From positions 1 to 38,191 of the IMG/VR virus record IMGVR_UViG_2778261499_000008: 38,191 nucleotides of DNA; one strand, written 5' to 3'. Shown here piece after piece: positions 6,604 to 26,008 of the stretch. The position numbers and the translations under genes were made by a program. Numbering within the stretch: position 1 is the stretch's first letter; each line of letters begins with the position of its first letter. Origin of the DNA: a virus (Duplodnaviria; Heunggongvirae; Uroviricota; Caudoviricetes). The notes under the pieces are model-generated. The model searched no databases, had not been told where the DNA came from, and was given only the letters and a program-made list of their open reading frames with translations.

Positions 6604-6696
6604 CCGTTTAACTCCGTGGTTAATGGGTGCAACTATTTTCTGTTGTGCAGAGCATGAGGCGCTATTTGACCTGGCTGGTCAGTGGATGAAACAACA

Positions 6697-6726
6697 GATA
6701 AAGAAAAGGCGGGCAATCCGCCCGCC
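6697..6726 (-). terminator. Intrinsic terminator-like hairpin (GGCGGGC-N5-GCCCGCC followed by a T-tract on the minus strand)
   Basis: Perfect 7-bp GC stem with 5-nt loop, followed on the minus strand by TTTTCTTTAT; lies about 90 nt upstream of FI, at the cargo/phage junction. Confidence 0.5.
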
Positions 6727-7035
6727 TGTCCTGACTTGCACTCACTCATTTTCCAACTGACGGTTTACATAGCCCAAACGTTATCAAATCTGACAGTCTG
6801 CTTTGAGCGAGGAGCGGACCAAACCCGGCCAACTGACTCTTAAAGGGGCCGCAGGAATTTTTCGTCTGAACTTTCGAAGCTCCTCTCCCTGAAGACAGAA
6901 AACTTCTGTGTGCTGTGGGAATATTGAATCTTTGCCTTAGATATAAATAATTTTATCCCGCCTGAAGTTTACATTATTTTATTTATCTGTTTTTCTAAAT
7001 CAGACTGCACTCCTTACTTAAATCAGGAGCCAGTC

Positions 7036-8235: not shown

Positions 8236-8246
8236 AGGGAGGTTAT

Positions 8247-9817: not shown

Positions 9818-9947
9818 TGTTTGAAACGGATGATTGGCGATGCGTATCATAAGTTACGTATGTCCGCTTCTGGCACAAAGCAGACGCCCACTCTCACGCG
9901 AATGCTTTGCCCTTGACTTGCCAACAACCGTATCGCTTGCTCCGCAA

Positions 9948-11240: not shown

Positions 11241-11249
11241 ATTGCAGCC

Positions 11250-11281
11250 GGGATAAATAAATGCCGCCTCTGTGGCGGCAT
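11250..11281 (-). terminator. Rho-independent terminator downstream of the BCCT transporter gene
   Basis: Hairpin ATGCCGCC-N5-GGCGGCAT followed on the minus strand by TTATTTATCC, immediately 3' of the BCCT stop. Confidence 0.6.
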
Positions 11282-11288
11282 GTTGCTG

Positions 11289-13292
11289 TTAACGAACCAG
11301 ATGCAGGAAGTGCAGGTGTTTTTCGTACTGGTCCAGTATGTCATTAATCAGCTGTTCCTGATTCCAGCCCATTACATCATAATTTTGGCCGCCCTCTTTG
11401 AGATAGACTTCAGCGCGATAATATCGATGTTGTTCACTCTGCTGCTCATCATTATCCAGCGCAGCGAGCGCGAAGGTCGGTGAGTTATACCCGCGAAGTC
11501 TCACTTCATATATATAATTCAGCTCGTTGCCCAAATCGACTTCAAGGCGAATACGATCCTCGGCGGCGTCACTGATGTGGCTTATCGTTCCCTGCTTGTT
11601 AAGTTCCTCCTGAACCAGCGTCATGGCGGGTTGGATAATGTCGTCCATAAAACGTTTCACAAGAGAGCGCTTCGGCAAATACGCGATATTGCGTAACCTT
11701 CTCTGCCAGGGAATTGGGTTACGTGCAGCCGTAGGAGCAATAGTCGCCATGCTAAGGCTTTCACGCTTGGTCAAATCCCGACGCAGGGCTTTTAACAGTC
11801 CGTATATGGATATTAATAAGATAACTGAGAAGGGCAATGCACTCGCTATCGTTACGGTTTGCAACGCACTCAGCCCCCCTGCGATCAGCAGGGCAATAGC
11901 AACAACGCCCATGAGCGATGCCCAGAAAATTCGCTGCCAGACGGGCGTGTTTGCCACCCCACCTGATGCCAGAGTATCCACAACCATTGCCCCCGAATCA
12001 GCAGACGTTACAAAGAAGACGATGACCATCGCCATTGCAATGAATGACAGCACGGAAGAGAACGGGAAATGCTCCAGGAAATTAAACAGGGCAAGCGCAA
12101 CATCCTGCTGAACGGTATTGGCGAGGTCAGTGGCGCCCTGGTTCATGATGAGATAGATGGCGCTGTTTCCAAACACCGTCATCCACATGAGCGTAAAGCC
12201 GGCGGGAACAAACAACACGCCAGTCACGAACTCACGAATTGTCCTGCCGCGGGAAACGCGTGCAATGAACATACCTACAAACGGCGACCATGAAAGCCAC
12301 CATCCCCAGTATAATAATGTCCAGCCCCCCAGCCAGTTGCTCGACTTGGGTTCATACGCGTAAAGGTTGAACGTTTTACTCACCAGTTCCGACAGATAAC
12401 CACCCGTATTTTCCACAAATGACTTCAGCAGAAGCACAGTGGGACCCAGGCACAAGACCAGCGCCAGGAGCAACACCGCCAGGCCCAGATTAAGCTCAGA
12501 CAGGATGCGTATTCCCTTGTCCAGGCCGGACACCACCGAAATCGTCGCTAACCCCGTGATGACCACGATCAAAATGACCTGTACCGTTTCATTGATGGGC
12601 ACGCCGAAAAGATGGTTCAAACCGGCATTCACCTGCAATACACCGTAACCCAGCGATGTTGCAACGCCAAAGACAGTGCCTATCACGGCGAAGATATCAA
12701 CCGCGTGGCCTATAGGCCCGTAAATGCGATCGCCGATAATGGGATAGAGCGCAGAACGCAGCGTTAAAGGCAGACCGTGACGGTAACTGAAAAAGGCCAG
12801 AATCAGCGCCACGATGGCATAAATTGCCCATGCGTGCAGACCCCAGTGGAAGAACGTCAGGCGCATGGCTTCCTTCGCTGCCGCAACGGTCTCTGGAGTG
12901 CCGACAGGTGGCGAAAGATAATGCATCACAGGTTCGGCAACGCCAAAGAACATCAGGCCGATCCCCATCCCTGCCGAAAAAAGCATCGCGAACCAGGAGT
13001 GGTAGCTGAAATCAGGCTGCGCATGGTCTGGGCCCAGCTTTATATCACCGTAACGTGAGAGTCCAAGGAACGTGACGCTCAGTAAAATCAGGGCCACAGC
13101 AAGTATGTAGAACCAGCTGGCATTCGTGAAGATTTGTTGCTGAAGTAGTTTAAAATTTTTGTCGGCGACATCCGGGAATACGGCGGCAAAGGCGACAAGA
13201 AGGAAAATTAGCAAAGCAGATGTAAAGAATACCGCTTTGTTAATCTGGCTTGTAGACTTCTTTGGGGTTGTATCATTTTCACTCATAATCAT
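11289..13292 (-). CDS. BCCT-family transporter, BetT-like (choline/betaine/carnitine type) with long cytoplasmic C-terminal tail
   Basis: 667 aa; contains the BCCT signature region ...WTLLYWGWWLSWSPFVGMFIARVSRGRTIREF...; overall length and C-terminal extension resemble BetT. Confidence 0.85.
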   Translation of the reverse strand: MIMSENDTTPKKSTSQINKAVFFTSALLIFLLVAFAAVFPDVADKNFKLLQQQIFTNASWFYILAVALILLSVTFLGLSRYGDIKLGPDHAQPDFSYHSWFAMLFSAGMGIGLMFFGVAEPVMHYLSPPVGTPETVAAAKEAMRLTFFHWGLHAWAIYAIVALILAFFSYRHGLPLTLRSALYPIIGDRIYGPIGHAVDIFAVIGTVFGVATSLGYGVLQVNAGLNHLFGVPINETVQVILIVVITGLATISVVSGLDKGIRILSELNLGLAVLLLALVLCLGPTVLLLKSFVENTGGYLSELVSKTFNLYAYEPKSSNWLGGWTLLYWGWWLSWSPFVGMFIARVSRGRTIREFVTGVLFVPAGFTLMWMTVFGNSAIYLIMNQGATDLANTVQQDVALALFNFLEHFPFSSVLSFIAMAMVIVFFVTSADSGAMVVDTLASGGVANTPVWQRIFWASLMGVVAIALLIAGGLSALQTVTIASALPFSVILLISIYGLLKALRRDLTKRESLSMATIAPTAARNPIPWQRRLRNIAYLPKRSLVKRFMDDIIQPAMTLVQEELNKQGTISHISDAAEDRIRLEVDLGNELNYIYEVRLRGYNSPTFALAALDNDEQQSEQHRYYRAEVYLKEGGQNYDVMGWNQEQLINDILDQYEKHLHFLHLVR

Positions 13293-13619
13293 TTATTCCA
13301 TTAATTAAATCCGCACTGGATAGAAGGTACTACCTCTCACAGAGTAGCAAAGTTCAACTGGCTATGCGGGGTTAATCGGAATGCATGGTGGAATGAGTGC
13401 CGATACAAATCATCCTATATTCTAAGGAGTTTTAAGTTACTCAGCCTGCCAATTACTGGGGCATTTAATTTGTATGATCTGTATCAAAGCTGGGATATAA
13501 GTTAAGTGAAGTATATTAGGCACGAATTACCAGCGTCTGCTCTTGGCACAGAGCGGACTGTCAGATTAGGCTTTACTCTGTGCCATAGATATGTAAGCTC
13601 ACACCAGAGTTCATACAAC

Positions 13620-14147
13620 TTATTGCGGCATTTCCGGCCATTCAGGATTTGCAGGATCCACACGACTGACCACAACGCTGTAGCGTTCCCAAGCCTCCAG
13701 CCGTGTGCGCTCCTCCTCTGTTGCCATGTTCAGCCTGACAGCACGCTCTAGCGGCAAAATCACGGATTCAGCATCTGCAAGAAGTCTGGCTTTCCGGTTT
13801 TCTGCCTGCAGTTGCAATTCCTCTGCCGTATAAATTCGTTTGATCACTGTGCCATCCTTAAACATCCAGTTCCCTGAAATGTCCGCCCGTCGGTTAGCAG
13901 TAATATCCGCCACTTCAACAACACTTAATCCATCCGGTCTGATAGCTGTCACATCCTTTTCCACATAGCGGATGATATTATCTTTGTCGTACGCTATTTT
14001 TATCGTGTCATCAGCAAAATACTTTTGTTCTTCGTACCAGTTCTTACCATCTTCTGAAAAAAACCAGACAACATCAAAGTTCTTTGTCAATTGATATTGT
14101 TCAACCGTTTTTGGATTACCCGCCGTAATATTTTTTAAATGCTGCAT
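13620..14147 (-). CDS. G: Tail fibre assembly chaperone gpG
   Basis: 175 aa, P2 gpG length, immediately downstream of the tail fibre gene H. Confidence 0.85.
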
Positions 14148-14150
14148 AAA

Positions 14151-16268
14151 TTATACCTGCGCCACGTTATACCATGTCCCGTTAATGTATTTCTGCACCG
14201 GCCTGTAATATACGCCACCAATGTTATCGGCAGAGTTTGAGCCGGTATCCTGAACAATAATGCCGGTATATACGCAACCTGACGGAGCCTGATGCGTCCA
14301 TGTAGTACCATTATTTGCTGGTTTATATGTAGATGCACCGCCCAGTCGCATGTCTCTCACATAACGTGAATCTGACTCAGCTTTGGTGTATGCACCAACA
14401 TCTCCCGCTGAGGGTTTATGAGCAGTTGTATATAGTTGCGCCCATCCAGACCAGTTAGCATCTGTGGTATCTCGTCGGGAGCGAATATATGCCGGAGCAT
14501 GAGCACCGCTGGTTCCACTCCAGCCAATAAGTAACTCACCCTCTCCTACTGCGGTTACGCCAGTGAGATGAAGCACATTACCATAGGCTGTTGGGTAGCC
14601 ATTGTTGTATGCCTCATACATCTGAATACCTGGTGTACCCTTTGAGCTCCCACCTAATGCAGTAACACGGTTTCTGGATACCAGTGTATTAATATTTATA
14701 TCGGCAGAACCATCAAATCTGACACCATTAATATTTCTTGCATTCGCTAACTTCGTTGCTGTTGCAGCATTTCCTGAAAGGCTGGAAATAAATGGATGTG
14801 AGCAGTAATAACCGCGCCCATTTTTAAAATCCAGAATAGCCTGTGCGTTCGTGCTTTCTGTAGCGGGATTAGTTGCCCCCCACTTATATGTCGTTTGACC
14901 GACGACATAATCCTCTGTCGGAACAATAACCGTTAGCCCTTCCTCTGCAAGAATTTGTACAGGGAAAGCTCTGGCTTCAACATAAAAAACACTACATACA
15001 TCATCATCTTTCAGGCTTGTAACAATGGAATGGATTGAACGCTCATTAGTCTGATACGTCCAGAAATAACCTGCCGCATATGAACCACGATCGGTCCAGC
15101 CTCCGGGCATAACCATGCCATTAAACTCGCAGTTATTCATTACATAATCGCCGTTATAACAACCAGTTGAAATAACGACGCGGGATGCCATTTCTCCTGA
15201 AAGGCTGGCAGCACGGCGAAAGATAACGGGATACCACTTCCCGGCAACGACATTTGCAGGGGCTGCAAACGAATACTTTCGCATTCCCTTTTTCTTATCC
15301 ACTTCACCTTTGCTGTAAACATTAATGTTACTCAGGAAGCGTCCTTTATCAGGAATATCCGCACCGTTCTGATCTTTCTGAAGACGTTTTTCAGCATTGT
15401 CATAGGCAGACTTCACCGCTTTTGGTGTTGCAGCCAGCGTTTCAGAATCACTGTTGGTGGCGCTACTGAGCTGGACAAGACCTTTTCGCGCTGTGGTGGC
15501 ATCCTGTGCAGTGTATTTCCCGTTAGCAAGGTCATACGCTGTCTTAACCGCCTTTGGCGTTGCCGCAAGCGTTTCAGAATCGCTGTTGGTGGCGCTACTG
15601 AGCTGGACAAGGCCTTTTCGCGCGGTGGTGGCGTCCTGTGCAGTGTATTTCCCGTTAGCAAGGTCATATGCTGCTTTTACCGCTTTTGGTGTTGCGGCGA
15701 GTGTTTCAGACGTGCTGTTGGTCGCACTGCTTAACTGAGTAAAACCTTTGGCGGTCAGCGAGGCGTCCGGGTGACGTCGTGACTGTTCATGTTCTGCAAT
15801 TTTGTCATCAACGTAATCCTGCGTTGCCATCACCGTTGTGGTGTCAATGGTCAGCGCCACTGAGGCCACACTGCTGACGATGATGACCATGCGGCAGGTC
15901 TGCGAACGCCCTGAGCCTTCGGCAAGAGCTGGCTTATAACTTTCAGCCATGTTCGCCACGGCAATTAACGTTCCAGCATCATCGTACAGGCCAAGCTCAC
16001 GCATCCAGAAACCGCCCACCTCCGGCGGAATAACCAGCTCTGCGATAATATAATTACTGTTTCGTTTGTCTTGGCTGATTTTGTTCAGCGCATGTCGCCA
16101 GACTTCGTGGATAAGCCCGGTCTGTCCGGCATCCGGGACAGGCAATTTACCACCGCCATCCCCGACGGCCATCGTGGTAATGTTGACCTTCCGCCCTCCC
16201 GGCGCGGTTGCCGCTGCCAGCTTTGCTGCACCAGCAGTGGTGATAACGGTTCTGAATTTTGTGCTCAT
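14151..16268 (-). CDS. H: Tail fibre protein gpH
   Basis: 705 aa; conserved P2 H N-terminus (MSTKFRTVIT...), internal tandem repeats of the SSATNS...AATPKAVK motif, divergent C-terminal receptor-binding region. Confidence 0.9.
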   Translation of the reverse strand: MSTKFRTVITTAGAAKLAAATAPGGRKVNITTMAVGDGGGKLPVPDAGQTGLIHEVWRHALNKISQDKRNSNYIIAELVIPPEVGGFWMRELGLYDDAGTLIAVANMAESYKPALAEGSGRSQTCRMVIIVSSVASVALTIDTTTVMATQDYVDDKIAEHEQSRRHPDASLTAKGFTQLSSATNSTSETLAATPKAVKAAYDLANGKYTAQDATTARKGLVQLSSATNSDSETLAATPKAVKTAYDLANGKYTAQDATTARKGLVQLSSATNSDSETLAATPKAVKSAYDNAEKRLQKDQNGADIPDKGRFLSNINVYSKGEVDKKKGMRKYSFAAPANVVAGKWYPVIFRRAASLSGEMASRVVISTGCYNGDYVMNNCEFNGMVMPGGWTDRGSYAAGYFWTYQTNERSIHSIVTSLKDDDVCSVFYVEARAFPVQILAEEGLTVIVPTEDYVVGQTTYKWGATNPATESTNAQAILDFKNGRGYYCSHPFISSLSGNAATATKLANARNINGVRFDGSADININTLVSRNRVTALGGSSKGTPGIQMYEAYNNGYPTAYGNVLHLTGVTAVGEGELLIGWSGTSGAHAPAYIRSRRDTTDANWSGWAQLYTTAHKPSAGDVGAYTKAESDSRYVRDMRLGGASTYKPANNGTTWTHQAPSGCVYTGIIVQDTGSNSADNIGGVYYRPVQKYINGTWYNVAQV
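15400..15790 (-). repeat. About three tandem copies of a ~132-bp in-frame repeat inside the tail fibre gene (approximate coordinates)
   Basis: DNA shows near-identical blocks (…ttcagaatcactgttggtggcgctactgagctggacaag… recurring); protein shows 44-aa units GLVQLSSATNSDSETLAATPKAVKxAYDLANGKYTAQDATTARK repeated. Confidence 0.8.
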
Positions 16269-16278
16269 TATTCCTCAC

Positions 16279-16809
16279 TTATCCGGGGTAAACCGTAATT
16301 ACATCGCCGTCATAAGCCACACCACCGGCGAACAGGTAGCCGGGAATGTCCCGGGTAATGTTCAGACCAATAAGGTGACGGCTTGCAGGTTTGGCATCAG
16401 CAATCAGCCGTTCCATTTCCTGATACATTGCCTCTGTGATACCGCTTTCCAGTACACCAATATCAAGGCGGAAGGTGCCGGGCGGGTCACTGTTTTCCCA
16501 CCACTCCGTCACGTTGATGAGATAGCCGAGCGGCTCCACCACACGCCGGATTGCGCCGATAGTGCCTTTATGACAGTGGATGAAATAGGCATCGCGGATA
16601 ACGGCGCGTTTTGTCGCTTCCGGCCACTTTTCATCCCACCTGTCGACCGAAAACGCCCACGCCAGCCACGGCAGCAGATTTGCCGGACAGGTATCCGGGT
16701 TCCACAGCTCACGAATACTGACCGGTGTCTTTTCAATTTCCGCACAGGCTTTTGCGGCGGCAACTTCAAGCGGTGATGAGCCGGTCGGCAGCAGTCGCGA
16801 ATCACTCAT
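16279..16809 (-). CDS. I: Baseplate assembly protein gpI
   Basis: 176 aa, P2 gpI length and position. Confidence 0.88.
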   Translation of the reverse strand: MSDSRLLPTGSSPLEVAAAKACAEIEKTPVSIRELWNPDTCPANLLPWLAWAFSVDRWDEKWPEATKRAVIRDAYFIHCHKGTIGAIRRVVEPLGYLINVTEWWENSDPPGTFRLDIGVLESGITEAMYQEMERLIADAKPASRHLIGLNITRDIPGYLFAGGVAYDGDVITVYPG

Positions 16810-17710
16810 CCGAGCCTCCGGTCACGACGCGGTATTCGGTACAGAAAGACGCCTGCGTATTGTTGAGCACGATGTCGGCCAGTGGTGCGGCCAGCTCGAC
16901 ACGCTGCACGCCTTCCACATGCAAAGCGGCATAAATGGCAGACAGACGGATGTCACGCCCCAGCCGGTGTTGTGCCGTGATGTACGCTTCCAGTTTTTTC
17001 ACGGCAGCAGCGCGGATGGGTTCGCTTTCGGGGCCAGGGTAAAGGTAAAGCGTGGCGTTTATCTGGTATTCAACGATGGCGGCAGACTGCACGGTCACGC
17101 GGTCGGCCACCGGTCTGACGTCCTCACCATTAAGGGCGTTGCGCACCACCGCCAGCAGGTCTTCGGATGCCACACCGTTATTTTCACGTGACAGCACAGA
17201 GATGGTGACGCAGGCCGGAGAAGGACTGGTGACAGAGATATCTGCGACACGCCCGTCGGCACTTCGACCATGATACTGATAGGCCCCCACCGACCCGGCG
17301 ACGCTTAAACCTTCAAACGCCTGCTGAATACGCAGACGATAATCGGTGTCAGATTCCATCACGGCCGGTGTCGGCGGGAGGGTCGAATCATCTGCCGGGG
17401 TGATAATCAGGCGTGTGGTGTTGTAATTGGCACCAATCACATCAAGGTCATTACCGGCGGCACAGGCCAGCATCACCGCCCGTGCAGCCTCATTCACACG
17501 CTGACGCCAGATAAGCTCACGATAAGCATTTTCCTCCAGCAGTTTGACGAGAGGCTCAGATTCCAGCGTCAGGGTACGGGCGACCGCCTCCTGCTGGTCT
17601 TCCGGGTAAAGGGAAATCAGTGTCGCCTTGCGTTCGGCAAGAATGGTTTCAAAGTCCAGCTCCTCGACCACATCCGGTGCGGGTAGCTGGTTCAGGTCGA
17701 TAATCGGCAT
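16802..17710 (-). CDS. J: Baseplate assembly protein gpJ
   Basis: 302 aa, P2 gpJ length; overlaps I start by 8 nt. Confidence 0.88.
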   Translation of the reverse strand: MPIIDLNQLPAPDVVEELDFETILAERKATLISLYPEDQQEAVARTLTLESEPLVKLLEENAYRELIWRQRVNEAARAVMLACAAGNDLDVIGANYNTTRLIITPADDSTLPPTPAVMESDTDYRLRIQQAFEGLSVAGSVGAYQYHGRSADGRVADISVTSPSPACVTISVLSRENNGVASEDLLAVVRNALNGEDVRPVADRVTVQSAAIVEYQINATLYLYPGPESEPIRAAAVKKLEAYITAQHRLGRDIRLSAIYAALHVEGVQRVELAAPLADIVLNNTQASFCTEYRVVTGGSDE

Positions 17711-17714
17711 GGTT

Positions 17715-18062
17715 TCAACTCACAGGGATGGTTAACGAAAGTGGCTGGCCGGTGTCGTTGTGCTGACCGGTTAACGTGACCGTCATTCGCCCGTCAAAAC
17801 TGCGCGCCGTGGTGACGGATGACAGGGTGACGCGGGGTTCCCATTTCAGCACGGCCATGTAACAGGCGACCTTAATCTGCAACTCAAGCGCCGGGGTCTG
17901 CGGCTGGTCAATCATTGACGCCAGCAACGAGCCGTAATCACGACGCATCACCCGTGAGCCGACCGGCGTGCGCAGGATATCGCCGATACTCTGGCTGATA
18001 TGCTCAAGGTCAGTGACAGTCAGGCCATCACTGCGATTCATTCCGAGATAACGCGCTGTCAT
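17715..18062 (-). CDS. W: Baseplate protein gpW (GPW/gp25 family)
   Basis: 115 aa, P2 gpW length; ATGA overlap with the V stop. Confidence 0.88.
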   Translation of the reverse strand: MTARYLGMNRSDGLTVTDLEHISQSIGDILRTPVGSRVMRRDYGSLLASMIDQPQTPALELQIKVACYMAVLKWEPRVTLSSVTTARSFDGRMTVTLTGQHNDTGQPLSLTIPVS

Positions 18063-18694
18063 AGAGGACTCCCGGTTGTGCCGCCGCTGTCGCCGGGGTG
18101 TTTATGGGTATGCAGTACCTTACCGTTTGATGAGAGTTCACCGCCGGTGTGTTCAATGTTGCCGCGCATCGTCCCGCCCTTCTGCACTTCCAGCGTGCCG
18201 GTAATCAGCCTGTTGGTGCAGACCACCTCCGGTGTGTCCAGGGTGATGCGGGTTGACGCTTTCACCATGACCACCGGCACCGTGGCAGTAACAGAATCAG
18301 AAGCCGTCACGCTGGCCGTTTTAATTCCGCTTACCGTGAGTGCACTGGTTTCGGGTTCATACTCAATCACCGCCCCGTCAGGGAAACGGATATGCAGGGC
18401 ATCCGCCGACGCAGACGGCGCGGGGTTATCGCCGGAATAAATCCCCGGCAGAACAAACGCCGTGTCAAGTTCACCGCCCACGGCCAGAATCAGCACCTGC
18501 TCTCCCACGGAAGGTGCCCACCATGTGCGCGAACGCCCGGCACGACAGGTCAGCCACTGAAGCCAGTCGGTGCACATGCCGCCGGTCTGCACACGGCAGC
18601 GACCGGCGTTAAGGTCGGTTTCGACGACAAGGCCGGTGCGAATCATGTTGCGCAGTGCGCGCGCGAGTTCCTGAATATTTGCGAGAGTGTTCAT
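18059..18694 (-). CDS. V: Baseplate spike/assembly protein gpV
   Basis: Product MNTLANIQELARALRNMIRTG... (211 aa) after trimming the ORF-track TTG-initiated extension (18712) to the first ATG; matches P2 gpV. Confidence 0.85.
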   Translation of the reverse strand: MNTLANIQELARALRNMIRTGLVVETDLNAGRCRVQTGGMCTDWLQWLTCRAGRSRTWWAPSVGEQVLILAVGGELDTAFVLPGIYSGDNPAPSASADALHIRFPDGAVIEYEPETSALTVSGIKTASVTASDSVTATVPVVMVKASTRITLDTPEVVCTNRLITGTLEVQKGGTMRGNIEHTGGELSSNGKVLHTHKHPGDSGGTTGSPL

Positions 18695-18777
18695 GCATGT
18701 GAGATTGCACAATATATAAAAGTTATGCTATCTGGATTCATTTGTAGAACTACCAGACAACATTCAAGGAGAGCGTA

Positions 18778-19563
18778 ATGGTCAGCTATAATGTGACTAA
18801 TGTGTGGGGGCTAATCGTTTTTTTCCTTTGTAGCTTTGCAGTATTAGCATTTTTTAGCTTTGGTAAAAGTAACCTTATGAGGCTTATTGCACATTATTTC
18901 AATTTTGGATATTCAGACAAAAAATTAAAAAGACTTGACCGCGAGTGGCGCGACATTCAACTATTTAAAATAATTAACGGAATCAATGTATCAGGCATTG
19001 AAAATGTGAGAATGATACAGCAGGGACTGATTGATGGAAAACTAAAAACATCGTATTTTTTCCTTACTCGCATCTGGGGTGACATAACAAAACCACCACA
19101 CATAATTAAAACAATAATTGTAATTCTGGCCAGTATTATTTATATTCTCTTCGCATGTTATATACACAACAAACAATCCGCTATAGTAAGAGATGCCATA
19201 GGCATACCATATAAAAATATGATGTACTATGTTTATAGTGACAAAGTTCTTTTATCCTTCAAAAATAAAGCAGTTGAATTTAATAAAACTTATAGCCTTG
19301 CCGATTGCAAGAGACTGCAAAACGTATTTATAAAAGACACACTTCCTGAAATCGCCTGCAATAAGCTCTTACAGCTAAACGAGGAGGACTCCGAATGGTT
19401 AAGCCAGGAGATTAAAGATAATAACAGTCACAAAAAAGCATTATTAATACTATCCCTCGTCTATTTCACTTCAGGTCTGGTTATATTCCTGTCATATACA
19501 AAATTCTTTTACGCCAATAAGAAGGTTTTAGAATACAAAGCATCAAATAAAAATCACTCATAA
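18778..19563 (+). CDS. Hypothetical membrane protein (moron), three predicted TM segments, unknown function
   Basis: 261 aa; very AT-rich gene on the opposite strand to the flanking late genes V and S; AAGGAG RBS 7 nt upstream of ATG; hydrophobic stretches near residues 9-29, 110-130 and 221-241; I recognise no family. Confidence 0.6.
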   Translation: MVSYNVTNVWGLIVFFLCSFAVLAFFSFGKSNLMRLIAHYFNFGYSDKKLKRLDREWRDIQLFKIINGINVSGIENVRMIQQGLIDGKLKTSYFFLTRIWGDITKPPHIIKTIIVILASIIYILFACYIHNKQSAIVRDAIGIPYKNMMYYVYSDKVLLSFKNKAVEFNKTYSLADCKRLQNVFIKDTLPEIACNKLLQLNEEDSEWLSQEIKDNNSHKKALLILSLVYFTSGLVIFLSYTKFFYANKKVLEYKASNKNHS

Positions 19564-19569
19564 ACCTCT

Positions 19570-19604
19570 AAACATTGAGCGACCAGCATGGCCGCTCAAT
19601 GTTT
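19570..19604. terminator. 12-bp perfect-stem hairpin between the moron and gene S (possible bidirectional terminator)
   Basis: AAACATTGAGCG-N11-CGCTCAATGTTT, ending in TTT followed by AATT, directly after the moron stop codon and after the S stop on the other strand. Confidence 0.5.
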
Positions 19605-19634
19605 AATTGCGCATCAGCCTCTGTCTGGATAAAA

Positions 19635-20087
19635 CTAACGCTCAAGGTGAGCCAGGATAATCTCTTCAATCATCTGCACATCCTCACCGGTAAAGCCGAG
19701 CAGAGGACGCGCCGGATAATCAATTTTCTTACCGTCTTTCCGGTTTTCTTCCGACAGACCGAACTGATGCACACTGGCGATTTTCGGCGACTTCCCGCCG
19801 TAAAATTCCATTGATGCCTGCTCCGGGCTGGCGCGGATATGCAAAAAACGACTGGTAATAAGTTTCGCAAACATTTTTCGCTTAACACGACCAGTCTTTT
19901 TTCTGGCGCTCTGCTGCTGGCGTGGCGCGTAGGGTGTGCCGTCCGGGGCTTTCTGTGCCATCACCCGACGCTGCTGACTCTGTCGCAGACGTTTTGCCAG
20001 TTCGGCACTCAGTCGCCGACGCCCTGACGGTGACAGCGACTCAATCAGTCCGGTCAGCCGGTCTTCAAAACGCTTAAACTCATTCAT
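19635..20087 (-). CDS. S: Tail completion protein gpS
   Basis: 150 aa, recognisably P2 gpS (MNEFKRFEDRLTGLIESLSP...). Confidence 0.9.
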   Translation of the reverse strand: MNEFKRFEDRLTGLIESLSPSGRRRLSAELAKRLRQSQQRRVMAQKAPDGTPYAPRQQQSARKKTGRVKRKMFAKLITSRFLHIRASPEQASMEFYGGKSPKIASVHQFGLSEENRKDGKKIDYPARPLLGFTGEDVQMIEEIILAHLER

Positions 20088-20547
20088 CCCACTTGCTCAC
20101 CAGTTCACCATTGATATAAAGCTCCACCGGGCGGGTGACCGGCTCCGGCGGCGGAGGTTCCGGGATATTCTTCACATGCAGTGCGCCGTCCACCTCACTG
20201 ACCAGCGTGCGCTCGGTCAGCATCAGACTGATGCTGATATCAAAGCTGCTGTCATTGTTGATGTCTGCATAAAACGTGAAGCCCTTTTTCTGGCCTGCGT
20301 CGGTGGTCATGATGTCTGGCTGATTTTCCCGCAGCCACGCCAGCACCGGCACGATGAGCAGGTCAAAATCACCGGTAAAGTCGGTCACAATCACGTTGAG
20401 CGTGTAACGCTTTTCGAATGACAGCGACGTCGCCAGTGTGGAGGCAATACTCCCGTTATCCACGAATATCCGCAGCATCTCGGGACTGGTTTTCAGCACC
20501 GTGACGGCATCAGTCAGCGCCCTGCGCAGGCTGTCGGGTTTGAGCAT
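20080..20547 (-). CDS. R: Tail completion protein gpR
   Basis: 155 aa, P2 gpR length and position; overlaps S start. Confidence 0.88.
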   Translation of the reverse strand: MLKPDSLRRALTDAVTVLKTSPEMLRIFVDNGSIASTLATSLSFEKRYTLNVIVTDFTGDFDLLIVPVLAWLRENQPDIMTTDAGQKKGFTFYADINNDSSFDISISLMLTERTLVSEVDGALHVKNIPEPPPPEPVTRPVELYINGELVSKWDE

Positions 20548-20800
20548 CGTTTTCGTCCTGACAGTGTTTAATCATTTTTACCTGGCTGGCACAGCGTGCC
20601 AGCGCGTTCTCAAGCTGTCGGATATCGGCACTTAAATCGCCGTTCGTCTCCGGGTCACTGCCCGGCATCGGGCAAAGGCTCACTTTCGGGCAGGCGTTGG
20701 CGACAATCACTGGCGTCGGTGCAGGCCGGGCGCTGGTGCAACCGGCGCACAGCATCAGGCAGGCCAGCGCCGTACCAGCGGCGAAAATCTTCGTTTTCAT
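20510..20800 (-). CDS. lysC: LysC, Rz1-like outer-membrane lipoprotein spanin component, embedded out of frame in lysB
   Basis: 96 aa; signal peptide with lipobox-like ...LMLCAGC; starts inside lysB in another frame and extends past the lysB stop into R, as in P2. Confidence 0.75.
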   Translation of the reverse strand: MKTKIFAAGTALACLMLCAGCTSARPAPTPVIVANACPKVSLCPMPGSDPETNGDLSADIRQLENALARCASQVKMIKHCQDENDAQTRQPAQGAD

Positions 20801-21080
20801 TCAGTAACCTCGTGATGGTTTTCTCGCGCTGTGCTTCACGCTTCGCCGCGTTCTCCAGTTCCTGACGCAGTGCCACCTGCGCCAGCTCGTTTTTGTCTGC
20901 TCTGGTGAGGGCAACATGAAGCTGATTTTTCAGCATGGTGATGGTCGTCTGCTGCCCGTTGGCGACGTTGTTCGCCCTGTCCAGCGAGGTGCGCAGGCTG
21001 GCGTTTTCATGCTTCGCCAGAAACAGACCGGCCACCGCCAGTGATAACAACACAACCAGCACAATCATCAGCTTTGACAT
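20655..21080 (-). CDS. lysB: LysB, Rz-like inner-membrane spanin component
   Basis: 141 aa, N-terminal TM helix followed by coiled-coil region; P2 LysB length and position. Confidence 0.8.
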   Translation of the reverse strand: MSKLMIVLVVLLSLAVAGLFLAKHENASLRTSLDRANNVANGQQTTITMLKNQLHVALTRADKNELAQVALRQELENAAKREAQREKTITRLLNENEDFRRWYGAGLPDAVRRLHQRPACTDASDCRQRLPESEPLPDAGQ

Positions 21081-21493
21081 GGTTCCCGCCCCTCAAAACG
21101 CTGACGACAGGCCGTGCGTATCAGCCGGAAAAACAGCGACGCCACGAGATAAATCAGCACGGTAAAAATCCACCCGGCAGCGACCAGCGCGATAAACGTC
21201 GCCACCATCACCACCAGAGCCGCCGCCCGTCTGCGCCACGGCACCGGCTGCAAAAACAGCGCCGTGACAATCTTCACGGCCAGCGATTCCGGCGGCAGCT
21301 CCCGCCCGTAGCGTTCCAGCACATACTCAGTGGCATACACGCCGACACCACCGGCAACCACACAGATAACCGTCGCCAGAATCGCCCAGGCAGCGACAAA
21401 ATTGACGGCCACGCTCTGCGGGTAAATCAGTGACAGTGCCAGCATCAGCGCCAGCGACACGTTCAGCATCAGTGAAAGGGATAATTTCTTCAT
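21068..21493 (-). CDS. lysA: LysA, lysis timing/antiholin-like membrane protein
   Basis: 141 aa multi-TM protein between K and lysB; P2 LysA length. Confidence 0.8.
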   Translation of the reverse strand: MKKLSLSLMLNVSLALMLALSLIYPQSVAVNFVAAWAILATVICVVAGGVGVYATEYVLERYGRELPPESLAVKIVTALFLQPVPWRRRAAALVVMVATFIALVAAGWIFTVLIYLVASLFFRLIRTACRQRFEGREPCQS

Positions 21494-21507
21494 GGTGTTT
21501 ACTCCGT

Positions 21508-22005
21508 TTAAGCCGGTACGCCGCCAGCGGTACGCCAGACGGTGACCAGTTTTTCCAGTGAATGCTCACGCTGACCGTAACCGGCTCCCGGCAGGGACGC
21601 CCAGATATTGCGACAGCGTGAAATGGCGCGCTCAATGCGTCCCGCCCGGATGTCATCCAGTGCACCGCGTTCGCGGATCAACTGAATGGCAAGTCTGTCC
21701 TGTGACAACGGACTGAAATCCGGCAGGGCAAGCTGTTTGCGGTAATGCGGCCAGAACAGGTAAAGCTGCTGATAGCGACCGGAGGCCGTGGATTTTTCAC
21801 CGCGACGGTTAAACACCTTCGCCGGTCGGCCATGTGCGAACGGGTGGTCACTGTAGTCGGTGAAAATTTCCGGCTTCCCGTCCAGTCCGGTGACTATCAC
21901 GTCATAGCCCCGGTTTTTCGTCAGCGGATGGTTTGCCGTCCCTTCGGACTCGGCCAGCATGTCGAGAAAGGCGGCGATATTCTGATGCGTGTTAATAACC
22001 GGCAT
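21508..22005 (-). CDS. K: Endolysin gpK (lysozyme-like)
   Basis: 165 aa, P2 gpK length and position after holin Y. Confidence 0.88.
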   Translation of the reverse strand: MPVINTHQNIAAFLDMLAESEGTANHPLTKNRGYDVIVTGLDGKPEIFTDYSDHPFAHGRPAKVFNRRGEKSTASGRYQQLYLFWPHYRKQLALPDFSPLSQDRLAIQLIRERGALDDIRAGRIERAISRCRNIWASLPGAGYGQREHSLEKLVTVWRTAGGVPA

Positions 22006-22286
22006 TACGGTTTCCCCCTGCCCTTAAAGCGGCGCTGAATGGCAATCTCAATCACCTGATAACCGGCGATACCCAGCATGGAGCCGATACCGCACACCGC
22101 AGGCAGTGACAGGTCAGGAAACTGCACCAGAACAACACCGGCAACCATCGAGACAAAACCACCGAGCAACATGCGCCCGATAAACAGACGCGGGGTGATG
22201 GGTTCACCACCGGCAAGCACCTTGCCGACAACAATCAGCACCCCAATCATGAAAAGCGACAGGACGCTTTTTTCTTCTGCTGTCAT
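22005..22286 (-). CDS. Y: Holin gpY
   Basis: 93 aa with hydrophobic TM segments and charged C-terminus (RRFKGRGKP); P2 Y length. Confidence 0.88.
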   Translation of the reverse strand: MTAEEKSVLSLFMIGVLIVVGKVLAGGEPITPRLFIGRMLLGGFVSMVAGVVLVQFPDLSLPAVCGIGSMLGIAGYQVIEIAIQRRFKGRGKP

Positions 22287-22289
22287 GCG

Positions 22290-22493
22290 TTACTCCCACA
22301 GATTGACAGTTTCAGCCACGGGCGCGGTCTGAACGTCGGGCAGTTCGACGGCGGTGCCGTGTGGCAGCACCGCACCCAGTTCAGCCAGTCCCGGATTTGC
22401 GGCGAGAACGGCTTCGACCACGCCCTCAGTGCGCCCGTAATACCGGACACAAATGGCGTCGAGCGTGTCGCCCTGTAGCGCAAAGGTCTTCAT
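22290..22493 (-). CDS. X: Tail protein gpX (LysM-like)
   Basis: 67-aa product MKTFALQGDTLDAICVRYYGRTEG... after trimming the ORF-track extension; start overlaps L stop in a TGATG arrangement. Confidence 0.85.
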   Translation of the reverse strand: MKTFALQGDTLDAICVRYYGRTEGVVEAVLAANPGLAELGAVLPHGTAVELPDVQTAPVAETVNLWE

Positions 22494-23002
22494 CAGATTT
22501 GACTCACGATGCAGCGCGGCTTGTCCTGGATACGCGCCACCGCCCAGCGCATATCCCGCCACAGTTCATCAATGGTGCTGTCAATGCTGTCAGCCTTCTT
22601 GTCGCCTTTCGCACTGGCATCCACGCCGCGATAACGCTCATAAAGCGACGCGGTCGCCATCGCACACACGGCGCGCTCGTAGTAAAAAACTTTGATGCTT
22701 TCACCGTCGATGTCGTCCGCCGGGACGTCCGCCAGACGCGTAAAACCGGCGGCAATTTTCTGTTCGCGGTACTCGTACAGCTCCGCATTCGTCTCCGCCA
22801 TGCCTGACTTGATGGCCTCACGCAGACGGGCGGGGGCGACGGTCTGCTCAAGGCGCATACGTTCCCGGACGCGCTTCGGGTCGATATCGGGAAAAAAGAA
22901 CGTGTTTTTAATCACCGGCTCGTCGCCTGCCGGTTGCGGGATGACCACCGTACCCTCACCGGACACGGGAGCCTCCTTTCGCGGAATAATCAGCGTCATC
23001 AT
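22493..23002 (-). CDS. L: Head completion/stabilisation protein gpL
   Basis: 169-aa product starting MMTLIIPRKEAP... after trimming the ORF-track N-terminal extension; P2 gpL length. Confidence 0.85.
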   Translation of the reverse strand: MMTLIIPRKEAPVSGEGTVVIPQPAGDEPVIKNTFFFPDIDPKRVRERMRLEQTVAPARLREAIKSGMAETNAELYEYREQKIAAGFTRLADVPADDIDGESIKVFYYERAVCAMATASLYERYRGVDASAKGDKKADSIDSTIDELWRDMRWAVARIQDKPRCIVSQI

Positions 23003-23101
23003 GACTACCTCTGAAAAGTCGGGCGGTGGACGCCGGTGCAGTGTCAGGTGATTCACCCTCACTGACCGGCGTGCCGCCCTGGCGCGGGGCGCATTCGGTT
23101 G

Positions 23102-23845
23102 TTAACTGGCTTTCTTTTTCGGGCGTCCACGTTTTGCCGGTGTCACGCTCCGGGTCTTACGCGGGGTACGGGTGGCCGCTTTTGGCTGCGGCTCCGGCTT
23201 CGGTTTCAGCTCCCGCTCCAGTCGTTCAATCTCTTTTTTGACGCCTGCCTGACAGTCGAGCTGTGTCGCACGTTGCAGGTGCGCCAGCGCACCGGCGGCA
23301 TCACCACCGTCACGCAGAAACAGACCGGTGATTTTGTGCAGCTTTGCGCGCACTTCATCAGGCATGTCAGCAGCAGCGGTCAGTTCAAGGGTGTCCGTCA
23401 GCAGTCGGATATCCACGGATTCACCGGCAGCGTGAGCGCGCATGGCCGCAAGCGCCACCTCCTCGGTGAACATGTACGGCGGGGTGCGGCGGTGTTTACC
23501 CGGCATGGTCAGCCCGTACTTCAGGGCATAACGGGCAATCTCCAGCGCACCGGCAATATCGCCGGTATCCAGACGCCACAGCATGACCGTCATCAGAATG
23601 TCATCCTGTGCACCTTTGCCCTGCTCCAGCACGCCGTTCACCCACGGCAACCAGAACGGCAGCAGTTCGCGTTTTTTTGCGGCCTTCAGCTCTTTTGAAT
23701 AAATCGCTTTCAGTGTGCGCTGGTCTGCGGCCAGCTTGACCAGCATCTGCTCATAGACAGTTGCATGTCGCAACGGGGCGGCTTCCCGCTGCGCGGTCAT
23801 CGCTGCCGAGACCCGCATCATGTGGCGCTGTGCGGGACTCGTCAT
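23102..23845 (-). CDS. M: Terminase endonuclease (small) subunit gpM
   Basis: 247 aa, basic C-terminal tail (KRGRPKKKAS), P2 gpM length and position. Confidence 0.88.
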   Translation of the reverse strand: MTSPAQRHMMRVSAAMTAQREAAPLRHATVYEQMLVKLAADQRTLKAIYSKELKAAKKRELLPFWLPWVNGVLEQGKGAQDDILMTVMLWRLDTGDIAGALEIARYALKYGLTMPGKHRRTPPYMFTEEVALAAMRAHAAGESVDIRLLTDTLELTAAADMPDEVRAKLHKITGLFLRDGGDAAGALAHLQRATQLDCQAGVKKEIERLERELKPKPEPQPKAATRTPRKTRSVTPAKRGRPKKKAS

Positions 23846-23848
23846 CGG

Positions 23849-24922
23849 TTACGCTCCCGGCTCTGCGGTCGCTTTAGCCGGTGTGGAGAAATCACCGACC
23901 TTAATTTTTTCCACCAGACAACCGGCGGCGTAGTCTTCCACCACGTAATCAATGTTCATTGACTCGTAGTTCTCCACGCGGTCGAGTTTCGGGTTTTCCA
24001 CAATTACGCGGCGATGGCTGTCATCCATGTAGTAGATGGACAGGTTTTCCAGCTTCGTGATGAGCATCGCATCCGCCGGGAAGTACGGGACGCGCACCGC
24101 CGGCAGGTTACCGATGCGTTTCTGGCTGATGATGACGTCAGCGGCCAGCATTTCGCTGTTGTCCTGCTCCCTGTTGACGATGGGGAAATACTTGTCCGCC
24201 AGTAGCTGGCGACCCACAATCACCACAAGGTCAGGGTCTTCCTGATACCACGGCTCAATCAGGTTGTTGGTCGCATCCATCACCAGTGCGTCAAGGCTGG
24301 CATAATCACCGCCCTTGCCCACGCGGATGACCTCAGAGGTCGTGTGACCTTCCTCGTCAGTAACCTTGCTCATCACGCGCGCCGGGGCTTCATTGCGGTA
24401 TTTCTGCAGCCAGCCGACCGCCACATCCTGCAGCATCGGATTGCTGCTGCGGTCAGAGGTTTCGGCACGCCTCACGCCGTTAAAACCGGCCATGATGAAA
24501 TCAAGGGACTGGCGTTTGATAATGGCGTTACGGACACGGAGCTGGAAATCCTGATAACGCGCCCACAGGTCCAGCGTTTTGTAGCGGATATAAAAATCGA
24601 AATTAATCTGGTCGCATTCGTACTTGTTTGACGCCAGCTTCGAGAAGTCCTTCGGCTGACGCTCGGTGCCACCGGCGGTGTCGGTGGTGCTGGCAATGGA
24701 GCCGGTGACACCAATACCAATTTTTTCCCCTTTCATTTCGCTGACCGGCACAATATTGATGCGGGTCAGAAAGTCAGAGGACTCCTGCATGGTGTTCATC
24801 AGGGTCTGAGTGACCGACGGTTCAACGGTGAATTTTTTCGACACATCACCGGCGTCGATGCCGTTCAGCTCGGCAACACGGGACAGGTAGGCATTAAATT
24901 TAAAGCGGGTTTCCTGGCGCAT
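23849..24922 (-). CDS. N: Major capsid protein gpN
   Basis: 357 aa, P2 gpN length and position. Confidence 0.9.
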   Translation of the reverse strand: MRQETRFKFNAYLSRVAELNGIDAGDVSKKFTVEPSVTQTLMNTMQESSDFLTRINIVPVSEMKGEKIGIGVTGSIASTTDTAGGTERQPKDFSKLASNKYECDQINFDFYIRYKTLDLWARYQDFQLRVRNAIIKRQSLDFIMAGFNGVRRAETSDRSSNPMLQDVAVGWLQKYRNEAPARVMSKVTDEEGHTTSEVIRVGKGGDYASLDALVMDATNNLIEPWYQEDPDLVVIVGRQLLADKYFPIVNREQDNSEMLAADVIISQKRIGNLPAVRVPYFPADAMLITKLENLSIYYMDDSHRRVIVENPKLDRVENYESMNIDYVVEDYAAGCLVEKIKVGDFSTPAKATAEPGA

Positions 24923-24980
24923 AGTTTTTCCTGAAATTAAGGGTTAATCGTGAAGGTTTTCCCGGACTGACTGACGCCGG

Positions 24981-25835
24981 TCAGCAGTTCGTCATCAGGG
25001 CGTCACCGCCACCGCCGGTGGCCTTGCTGCGGCGCTGCTGGGTCAGACTTTCGGTGTGGTCGAGACTGTTTTTCAGGCGGGTGAATGCCTGACTGGTTTC
25101 ATCCGCCCTGTCAGTCACATCCTGCTTAAGTGCGGAAAAGGCAGTTTCCATCTCAGCGAGGCGCTGCTCAGTGGCGCTCAGTTTTTCCTGCACATGTTCA
25201 GCGACAGCGGTCACCGCTTCATGCACGTCATTCAGACGGGCGTCATCGCTGGCCTGTTTGCGGCCAAAAATGGATTTCACCTTTTCGGTCAGGGCGGTGA
25301 ACACGGTTTCAGGCAGGTCTTCAAATTCCAGCTCAACGGGCGTTGCCACTGAAATCAGGTTTTCAGGGCTTAATTTGAAGCGGTTCAGAGGGTTGTGTTT
25401 TGCCGTGCGGCAGAATTCCAGGTATTCCGTACCGAGGCTTGCCGGGTCATCGGTGACGGCCAGACCCACCAGATAACATTTGCCGGTGTTGGCAAAGTTC
25501 GGCTGAATTTCCATTGAGGTGTAGACCTTCTGCGCGGCCTTGTTCATCGCGATAAGGTCATCGGTCGGGGTGATTTTCGCAAACAGCGCCCATTTGCCTT
25601 TCAGCGCCGAATCATCGTCAATCTTTTCGGCCTTCAGTTCGGCCACATCGCCATAACGTTTAAAAATACCGTCAGGCAGGATGCCGCGCAGATGTTCCAG
25701 GTTAATGCGGCAACCATAGACACGCGGGTCAAAGGTTTCGGCCATTTCCTGAATATCCTGCGCACTGATGACACGCCCGTCACAGGTGTCACCCTCAACG
25801 CCGATACGAAAGAATTTTGAGACTTTTTTTGCCAT
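24981..25835 (-). CDS. O: Capsid scaffolding protein gpO
   Basis: 284-aa product starting MAKKVSKFFRIGVEGDTCDGR... after trimming to internal Met; P2 gpO length. Confidence 0.88.
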   Translation of the reverse strand: MAKKVSKFFRIGVEGDTCDGRVISAQDIQEMAETFDPRVYGCRINLEHLRGILPDGIFKRYGDVAELKAEKIDDDSALKGKWALFAKITPTDDLIAMNKAAQKVYTSMEIQPNFANTGKCYLVGLAVTDDPASLGTEYLEFCRTAKHNPLNRFKLSPENLISVATPVELEFEDLPETVFTALTEKVKSIFGRKQASDDARLNDVHEAVTAVAEHVQEKLSATEQRLAEMETAFSALKQDVTDRADETSQAFTRLKNSLDHTESLTQQRRSKATGGGGDALMTNC

Positions 25836-26008
25836 TGTCAGGAGTCCTGAATAGTGATTAGAGGAGTCACATGTCGGCATCAGTTTCCCGACGATACGCA
25901 TCCTCCGCCATCAGTCCCGGATGGCTTATCACTGACACAACAGCACCTTAGCGAATCGCGGGGCGCGACTCAGTAGCCTTGCCGTGTATTCATCACGGCG
26001 AGGTATTC
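25836..26008. promoter_or_regulatory. Divergent late-promoter region between O and P (expected Ogr-dependent PO and PP promoters)
   Basis: Inferred from P2 organisation (O and P divergently transcribed from Ogr-activated late promoters). I could not confidently read a TGT-N12-ACA activator site by eye. Confidence 0.4.

Follow-up and report, generated by a model that had tools for sequence, protein, structure and literature searches.

The opposite-strand gene between V and S of a P2-like Escherichia coli prophage is orf30 of phage P2 and belongs to a small, deeply diverged family of predicted inner membrane proteins

The stretch of DNA analyzed here (the window; 38,191 nucleotides, IMG/VR record IMGVR_UViG_2778261499_000008) spans a whole P2-like Escherichia coli prophage from ogr to int, and sequence comparison identifies the plus-strand open reading frame (ORF) at 18778-19563, between the baseplate gene V and the tail completion gene S, as orf30 of phage P2. 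The encoded protein is 98.1% identical to P2 Orf30 (AAD03281.1) over 261 of 261 residues (E value of 1e-152), the two differing at five amino acids (aa), and the region is 98.6% identical to P2 at the DNA level. The window ORF shares with P2 orf30 not only full-length, high identity but also the V-S position and the reversed orientation, with the pV promoter region before the gene and the terminator hairpin behind it, which places it in the P2 orf30 orthologue group together with genes of P2_AC1, vB_EcoM-12474II-V, P2_4A7b, and the Yersinia phages vB_YpM_115/117/46. It differs in residing in a prophage whose other cargo slots are not those of P2. A preliminary description of this DNA, made from the sequence alone, had mentioned a small orf30 of P2 at this position as a counterpart; this was mistaken, as the window ORF is itself P2 orf30, a gene of 786 bp. 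As to function, it is quite possible that Orf30 is a lysogen-expressed, stand-alone envelope protein that would exclude heterologous phages or other envelope-attacking agents, a composite reading that we favor tentatively.

The gene as such was known before. The deposited P2 genome (AF063097/NC_001895) lists it with the label Orf30 and the remark "nonessential," and published work treats it as inserted between S and V, at one of three loci (the orf30 locus, TO, and Z) where P2-like phages carry horizontally acquired genes (PMC3091744). Phage R18C has a different ORF at the orf30 locus (PMC6823313). The Prokaryotic Genome Annotation Pipeline (PGAP) names the window ORF hypothetical protein WP_001504911.1, and in PHROGs the family of unknown function phrog_2407 matches residues 1 to 261 of 261 (E value of 1e-148). 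As a finding from a genome scan, this is a rediscovery of an annotated gene and not a new element. What appears to be new is the picture of the family (the link to DUF6216, the topology, and a cysteine pair), the reoccupation of the V-S slot across genera, and the retention of relatives in chromosomes. Our literature searches found no reported function for orf30, DUF6216, or phrog_2407, and in the model phage P2 only a handful of genes, orf30 included, still lack one.

The ORF that had been singled out is real: it stands on the plus strand while all other large ORFs across 13620-25901 are on the minus strand (Table 1). The AAGGAG Shine-Dalgarno sequence noted earlier is indeed found 6 nt before the ATG, and it is kept as (A/G)AGGAG in all eight P2-clade alleles compared. 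Likewise, the striking AT richness of the gene relative to its neighbors was confirmed, with a GC content of 0.33 (0.34 at third codon positions) versus 0.60 for V and 0.54 for S, and in a windowed profile the GC content falls to approximately 0.34 only over 18800-19600. Alignment with phage Wphi delimits the insertion. Identity ends directly upstream of the V ATG and returns at approximately 19633, beside the S stop codon, and the 938-bp cassette of the window stands where Wphi has a 66-bp V-S junction with its own hairpin and its own TGT...ACAAC element. In such empty junctions of the Wphi type, the TGT...ACAAC element reaches into the end of S, and between this element and the start of V lies a GC-rich hairpin.

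The regulatory setting is different from what the preliminary description proposed. There, the gene was taken to lie inside an uninterrupted late operon, but the P2 record puts both the O-operon terminator and the pV promoter in the V-S gap, and orf30 is consequently situated between two late operons. The AT-rich upstream DNA with promoter-like hexamers is the pV late promoter, which reads on the minus strand; a consensus scan of the plus strand upstream of orf30 found no sigma-70-like promoter, and the best candidate from a looser scan, GTGAGA-19-TATGCT, has 8 of 12 matches and poor spacing. Only 3 nt separate the Ogr site from the orf30 Shine-Dalgarno sequence, and any orf30 mRNA therefore has to begin inside the pV DNA or beyond it. 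The 83-nt left spacer is nearly invariant among the eight alleles, as would be expected of DNA that has to function as pV. In the P2 record, transcription of the V operon begins with the first base of the V coding sequence (18694), and the mRNA would be leaderless.

The hairpin behind the orf30 stop codon is present, with a 13-bp perfect stem and an inner 3-bp stem, but it is not private to orf30: the P2 record assigns it, as a putative terminator, to the O operon, and it either is shared with this converging operon or belongs mainly to it. Its folding energy is -22.4 kcal/mol as plus-strand RNA and -28.3 kcal/mol as minus-strand RNA, with a z score of approximately -5 for both, and none of 200 shuffled sequences folds as well. 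It is conserved in the eight alleles and probably works in both directions. A terminator scan reported no T-tailed terminator here for the plus or the minus strand, and several of the more distant homologues in this slot (see below) abut or overlap S, leaving no room for a hairpin. A structured RNA in the intergenic regions was considered and rejected, as Rfam gave only sub-threshold look-alikes of microRNA hairpins.

The occurrence of orf30 in E. coli was surveyed in 5,426 complete genomes, 1,571 of which have a matching V/S junction. Of these junction-bearing genomes, 459 carry orf30, with 92.8 to 100% DNA identity among sampled hits; most of the remaining junctions are empty, as they are in Wphi and most other prophages, and some hold unrelated cargo. 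The suggestion that the gene is optional, single-gene cargo at a variable junction was therefore well founded. In phage records, a protein search of 50,697 entries found family members in 21 P2-clade records only, and the gene is present in 20 full-length phage records. A moron, in the sense of Hendrix and Juhala, is an autonomous extra gene in a phage genome. Presence or absence at a fixed junction and a base composition unlike that of the surroundings both fit this designation, so that part of the earlier claim of an autonomous moron cassette stands; as to its autonomy, a promoter of its own is not evident in the scans, and the strong hairpin behind the stop codon is annotated as that of the O operon.

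The alternative cargoes that we sampled at the V-S junction have a GC content of approximately 33 to 36% and comprise two ORFs, one of 247 aa running opposite to the late genes and one of 245 aa on the same strand as these, and a 359-aa protein with a RelA/SpoT domain that matches the PADLOC candidate PDC-S33 (6.5e-17). The latter is annotated as a GTP pyrophosphokinase in E. coli GIMC1405:EC_Lstone01 (locus L021, 3837-4916), and the two ORFs of approximately 246 aa (L019, 875-1618, and L020, 3772-4512) have no Pfam hit. None of these cargoes is related to Orf30; the 247-aa and 245-aa proteins were evaluated as hidden relatives and discarded at an hhalign probability of <1%. Recent surveys of hotspots in P2-like phages covered TO, Z, and a tail/CI slot but not V-S (PMC9122126; bioRxiv 10.1101/2024.10.15.618418). 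An additional cargo hotspot, not included in these published surveys, seems to exist at the V-S junction, and our results flag the junction as a P2-like cargo site. Like old, tin, fun(Z), and the contents of the TO and Z hotspots, orf30 is optional, horizontally exchanged cargo between conserved phage genes, and at least one alternative cargo of the slot looks defense-like (RelA_SpoT, PDC-S33).

Judged from the sequences of its relatives, orf30 is no recent one-off insertion. In seven lineages of P2-like prophages, the V-S slot is occupied, likewise opposite to the late genes, by homologues that are only 17 to 39% identical and equally AT-rich; the hosts are Serratia-like (L009), Serratia liquefaciens (L031), an Enterobacter metagenome-assembled genome (L010), Citrobacter freundii (L025/26), Citrobacter braakii (L032/33), and Sodalis (L027). 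V and S of these prophages are 67 to 85% and 43 to 53% identical, respectively, to those of the window, and the cargo is thus far more diverged than its neighbors. All family members have a GC content of 30 to 35% whatever the host, which makes the AT richness a lasting trait of the family and no mark of recent import. In contrast to the TO and Z slots, which have no single recurrent family, the V-S slot is repeatedly filled by the Orf30 family. The slot of the Serratia-like prophage (L009; Logan SRR18507786) also holds an 89-aa duplicated V fragment (6737-7006) and a 356-aa ORF without a Pfam hit (7181-8251); this content is a footprint of recombination at the V-S junction.

The family is small and was difficult to retrieve. 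An exhaustive phmmer search of 1.84 billion representatives gave 34 matches, including approximately 20 full-length proteins of 239 to 271 aa with 17 to 39% identity; a word-indexed search returned five clusters only, and a search of genome contigs with a profile from a narrower alignment returned three Enterobacter loci only. Pairwise tblastn comparisons gave E values of 1e-7 to 4e-10. The window protein has no match in Pfam (at E values up to 1) or NCBIfam. DUF6216 (PF19723; model length of 270) is matched by 9 of the 30 members of our family alignment, which also underlies the motif, charge, and cysteine counts given below. The slot-resident Sodalis protein P0026 aligns with positions 10 to 265 of the 270 at 28.9 bits, above the gathering threshold of 27.3. 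Length and full-length architecture of DUF6216 match those of the Orf30 family, but the link to Orf30 is transitive, via relatives that are only approximately 20% identical, and the window protein itself gives no hit. The sequences therefore point to a relation at the superfamily level and not to formal membership. Orf30 belongs to a small Enterobacterales family of approximately 250 to 270 aa that is distantly tied to DUF6216. DUF6216 is uncharacterized, and the sole paper that mentions it is on another subject.

Searches for a resemblance to proteins of known function were negative. In PADLOC-DB v2, no family was found for Orf30 at E values up to 10, and the 30 members together yielded three single, non-significant matches only. 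Foldseek comparison of an AlphaFold2 (AF2) model with PDB and BFVD gave nothing significant (E values of at least 0.07, template modeling scores up to 0.2), a PDB profile search with the family returned membrane-helix noise only, and no enzymatic motif was found in Orf30. Across Pfam, PHROGs, PADLOC, PDB, and BFVD, there was no sequence or fold similarity to known superinfection exclusion or abortive infection families. The exclusion or abortive infection role proposed in the preliminary description finds no direct support in these searches but is a reasonable conjecture.

Relatives also occur outside intact P2-like prophages. In one lineage (L007/8), a family member lies beside a GpR fragment in a decayed prophage. 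In Serratia, the gene is found in the order ASCH gene, family gene, ecotin gene, and PAP2 gene, an arrangement conserved in three assemblies, without a detectable V, W, S, or R homologue within approximately 6 kb; these chromosomal copies are 51% identical to the phage-slot copy P0043. They occupy 6001-6768 or 6001-6759 in L003, L005, and L006, with a GC content of 32.6 to 33.7%. The Serratia copies and the L009 slot copy share the element TTATCA-17-TAT(C/T/G)AT approximately 30 nt upstream of the start, a better promoter candidate than that of the window. In L003, a 186-like prophage is integrated directly beside the islet, which shows that the Serratia site adjoins a P2-like attachment site. 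Enterobacter has chromosomal copies as well. In Erwinia persicina, copies are located beside a SymE toxin gene, in one case together with a P4-alpha-like primase and a TIR-like gene, and an integrative island (L028) has, in this order, an antirestriction gene, RadC, CbtA/CbeA, the family gene, a ScoMcrA-type HNH protein, and SymE. The SymE-type gene is approximately 0.7 to 1.4 kb from the family gene (L022-L024, approximately 6435-6803; L028, 7150-7476). The contexts of the relatives have no partner gene in common.

These neighborhoods raise the question of whether Orf30 might be an immunity or toxin-type membrane protein, related to a bacteriocin, a tailocin, or addiction, or else selfish cargo in a permissive slot. 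Small, AT-rich, opposite-strand genes for membrane proteins are known among colicin immunity genes, some relatives neighbor type I or type IV toxin systems (SymE, CbtA/CbeA, and hok-like contexts), and the slot does tolerate unrelated cargo. However, no cognate toxin or bacteriocin gene is found beside a family member in the 13 lineages examined, and the sole match to a colicin immunity model, with an E value of 0.11 in one member, is noise. Selfish cargo is hard to reconcile with the purifying selection on two soluble domains described below. We consider an explanation of this kind very unlikely.

That the protein has three hydrophobic segments and resides in the membrane, as stated earlier, is borne out by hydropathy peaks at aa 9 to 27, 113 to 131, and 222 to 242. 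Hydropathy, the charge pattern of the family, and the AF2 model together give good support to the prediction that Orf30 is a stand-alone, three-span inner membrane protein with an N-out/C-in orientation. The first transmembrane span (TM1) is not preceded by a single K or R in any of the 30 members, and loop 1 is net positive in all 30 (15 K+R versus 7 D+E in the window protein). The AF2 model, built on the family alignment, has a predicted local distance difference test (pLDDT) value of 83.8 and a predicted template modeling score of 0.73. Loop 1 is modeled as helices at aa 30 to 40, 48 to 67, 74 to 86, and 91 to 94, mostly at a pLDDT of 80 to 93 but at 67 over aa 31 to 40. Loop 2 is modeled as a four-stranded sheet (strands at aa 141 to 145, 148 to 152, 156 to 163, and 166 to 173) plus two short helices (aa 174 to 179 and 189 to 198) that bear the cysteines. 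A lipoprotein or a protein with a cleavable signal peptide was considered and rejected, as no member has a basic n-region and a conserved lipobox is lacking.

The family alignment shows conserved residues in both loops and in the tail. Loop 1 carries the motif D-x-Q-L-F-(K/R)-x-x-N-G-I-N-V-x4-D-A-x-x-I ... G-x-L, with fully conserved G68 and G87 and almost fully conserved Q61, N70, and D76. Loop 2 is about neutral in charge and has exactly two cysteines in 30 of 30 members, C194 being invariant and C177 at least 90% conserved; in the model, this domain is probably stabilized by a C177-C194 disulfide. In the tail, N247 and K254 are conserved. Topology, cysteine pair, and cytoplasmic motif together provide specific residues to mutate.

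The topology is relevant to another possibility, namely, that Orf30 is a nonessential helper of the lytic cycle at the inner membrane, acting in lysis timing, DNA entry or exit, or tail/baseplate assembly. Class I holins are likewise three-span N-out/C-in proteins, and hydropathy and charge distribution agree with this arrangement; moreover, the P2 lysis genes are only approximately 0.5 to 2.7 kb away, and the S-V position is strictly conserved across very divergent P2-like prophages. Such a function would account for the lasting association of the family with the lysis, R, S, and V genes. Class I holins are, however, proteins of approximately 90 to 130 aa with short loops, encoded in a late lysis cassette and expressed late, whereas Orf30 has 261 aa with folded loops of approximately 85 to 90 aa and is encoded outside the Y-K-lysABC cassette. 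The gene invariably runs against the late operons and has no Ogr-type late promoter of its own, approximately 70% of the E. coli P2-like prophages lack it, as do viable phages (Wphi, for example), and it is nonessential according to the P2 annotation. Homologues also persist in chromosomes without phage genes. A lytic function is, in our opinion, distinctly unlikely.

The substitution pattern indicates that orf30 is functional and selected, with its soluble domains under purifying selection. The 261-codon frame is intact in 8 of 8 P2-clade alleles despite up to 19% amino acid divergence. The ratio of nonsynonymous to synonymous substitution rates (dN/dS) of divergent orf30 pairs is 0.42 to 0.61 (dS up to 0.30), compared with 0.06 to 0.24 for V (dS up to 0.14) and 0.00 to 0.20 for S (dS up to 0.18). 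This raised ratio is due to the membrane spans: the corresponding ratio of polymorphisms (pN/pS) is 1.37 for TM1, 0.74 for TM2, and 1.32 for TM3, versus 0.37 for loop 1, 0.32 for loop 2, and 0.23 for the tail, and TM1 is the most variable segment, with 14 of 19 sites varying. Positive selection on the exposed domain was considered and rejected, given the value for loop 2 and the confinement of high values to the spans. The idea of a chance ORF in AT-rich spacer DNA, which could appeal only to the lack of an assigned function and of an obvious promoter, is effectively refuted by the intact frame, the low pN/pS values of the soluble domains, the full-length homologues down to 17% identity with conserved motifs and cysteine pair, the confident AF2 model, and the strong Shine-Dalgarno sequence.

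We now return to the favored reading of Orf30 as a lysogen-expressed exclusion protein. The gene is most likely made from the prophage and not during virion production, since it faces away from both late operons, has no Ogr-type promoter of its own, and has relatives that persist without phage genes. When Ogr fires pV, activator and polymerase would occupy the DNA of the orf30 5' leader and should in this way switch orf30 off late in lytic growth. The protein would then act alone at the cell envelope, to the benefit of the lysogen, and its most probable role would be to interfere with the entry of heterologous phages or to signal about them, i.e., to mediate superinfection exclusion in a broad sense. 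This role is suggested by analogy with old, tin, and fun, by analogy with small membrane exclusion proteins, and by the conflict-gene neighborhoods of some relatives.

Several points weigh against it. No sigma-70-like promoter is evident in the sequence upstream of orf30, so that expression in the lysogen is presumed, and DNA as rich in AT as this is frequently subject to silencing by H-NS. The known exclusion phenotypes of P2 are already assigned to old, tin, and fun. P2 vir mutants have classically been selected on P2 lysogens, on which they plate, and any exclusion is therefore unlikely to target P2 itself. Finally, substitutions cluster in the membrane spans, and there is no arms-race signature on the exposed periplasmic domain.

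With respect to known systems, old, tin, and fun are the neighbors in kind of orf30, and each proved to be a phage exclusion system. Exclusion has been demonstrated for all three, and their products are soluble. Orf30 is unrelated to them in sequence and is, in contrast, a membrane protein without a reported phenotype. HK97 gp15, T4 Imm, and P22 SieA are single-gene, membrane-embedded proteins without an enzymatic domain, optional, and encoded in or near tail gene clusters. This is an analogy only; the searches showed no similarity in sequence, profile, or fold, and Orf30 is larger and has two folded soluble domains.

A bolder version of the exclusion reading, which is conceivable but in our judgment doubtful, is that Orf30 and its DUF6216-like relatives constitute an unrecognized, single-gene, inner membrane defense or exclusion family that is the signature cargo of the V-S slot and was domesticated by Serratia and Enterobacter after prophage decay. 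In that case, the disulfide-bonded periplasmic domain, coupled to the conserved cytoplasmic domain, might sense or block a step at the envelope. A divergent family that holds one slot in prophages of Escherichia, Citrobacter, Enterobacter, Serratia, and Sodalis and that survives alone in chromosomes is a well-defined single-gene candidate for experimental work.

Possibly, the benefit to the lysogen is unrelated to phages. Orf30 might be a host fitness (lysogenic conversion) factor that alters envelope physiology, for instance, in stress, serum or antimicrobial peptide exposure, adhesion, aggregation, or transport regulation. Retention as a single gene in Serratia (next to ecotin and PAP2) and Enterobacter chromosomes without detectable phage genes would fit such a factor, as would the purifying selection on the soluble domains and the match of the window to a prophage of an avian pathogenic strain. 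There is also a precedent in neaT of strain CFT073, like orf30 an exceptionally AT-rich, opposite-strand, single membrane-protein moron in a P2-like prophage, the AT richness of which persists across homologues as in the Orf30 family and which promotes fitness in bacteremia (PMC3573123). Unlike orf30, neaT occupies the Z slot (between G and FI), encodes an acyltransferase (PF01757), and has a demonstrated virulence phenotype (PMC3573123). On the other hand, Orf30 has no domain or motif that hints at a physiological activity, a phenotype for P2 orf30 has not been reported, and the V-S slot and conflict-gene islands dominate the contexts of the family, which fits inter-element conflict at least as well. 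We regard a role in host fitness as possible yet rather improbable.

Table 1. Features of the orf30 locus and of the other cargo slots of the prophage (window coordinates)
Feature	Coordinates	Strand	Basis
Gene V, baseplate spike; opens the V late operon and flanks the slot on the left	18059..18694	-	Pfam Phage_spike (2.3e-28), Phage_base_V (5.9e-20); PGAP, "phage baseplate assembly protein V"; P2 annotation, gpV
P2-type V-S cassette, 938 bp (pV promoter, orf30, terminator hairpin)	18695..19632	.	Wphi junction alignment
Ogr activator binding site of the pV late promoter, centered near -55 from the V start	18736..18763	-	Transferred from AF063097
orf30 Shine-Dalgarno sequence AAGGAG, 6 nt before ATG	18766..18771	+	Read from sequence
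orf30 coding sequence, 261 aa, 30.4 kDa, pI 9.5	18778..19563	+	ORF list
TM1, aa 9-27, predicted uncleaved N-out signal anchor	18802..18858	+	Kyte-Doolittle peak of 2.4; AF2 helix
Loop 1, aa 28-112, predicted cytoplasmic helical domain	18859..19113	+	Charge, AF2, family motif
TM2, aa 113-131	19114..19170	+	Hydropathy peak of 2.6; AF2 helix 109-134
Loop 2, aa 132-221, predicted periplasmic domain with C177/C194	19171..19440	+	AF2, Cys conservation
TM3, aa 222-242; behind it, a predicted cytoplasmic tail, short and basic, aa 243-261	19441..19503 (TM3)	+	Hydropathy; AF2 helix 202-260
Hairpin 6 nt past the orf30 TAA; in P2, putative rho-independent terminator of the O operon	19569..19605	.	P2 record and folding
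Gene S, tail completion; closes the O late operon and flanks the slot on the right	19635..20087	-	Pfam Phage_tail_S (3.7e-44); P2 gpS
ORFs of the Z/fun-slot block: MFS transporter, ChaC-like gamma-glutamylcyclotransferase, LysR regulator, DUF2254 membrane protein, BCCT transporter	6821-13535 (ORFs at 7036-8235, 8247-8939, 8936-9817, 9948-11240, 11289-13292)	+, +, +, -, -	
652-aa HATPase_c_3 protein	29247-31205	+	PADLOC REase_II (1.6e-91)
C5 cytosine methyltransferase	31246-32397	-	Pfam DNA_methylase (1.3e-55)

The remainder of the prophage closely resembles a P2-like prophage of avian pathogenic E. coli (APEC) O2-211. The orf30 region (18500-19800) is 100% identical between the two, and the rest of the window is 99.8 to 99.96% identical, apart from a block in the Z/fun slot, between the tail sheath gene FI and the tail-fiber assembly gene G. 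Here, a 6.7-kb host-like block (Table 1) replaces the 1.58-kb cargo of the APEC O2-211 prophage. The same block, 100% identical, is found inside a lambdoid prophage of APEC O2-211, 2.3 Mb away, and in the P2 slot it occurs in none of the 5,426 complete E. coli genomes. Its junctions share 23 to 26 bp with both partners and include the inverted repeat AATCTGACAGTC / GACTGTCAGATT. The block could be a real capture from prophage to prophage, an assembly chimera, or the product of a constructed window. At approximately 38.2 kb, the prophage probably exceeds the packaging capacity of P2.

In the TO slot, by the replication gene A, the window has a type II restriction-modification-like pair, unlike the old/tin cargo of P2. 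The tail-fiber gene H contains, at 15393-15728, diverged repeats of approximately 198 bp with 86 to 87% identity and an offset of 132 bp, a region in which the window exceeds the APEC O2-211 prophage by 132 bp.

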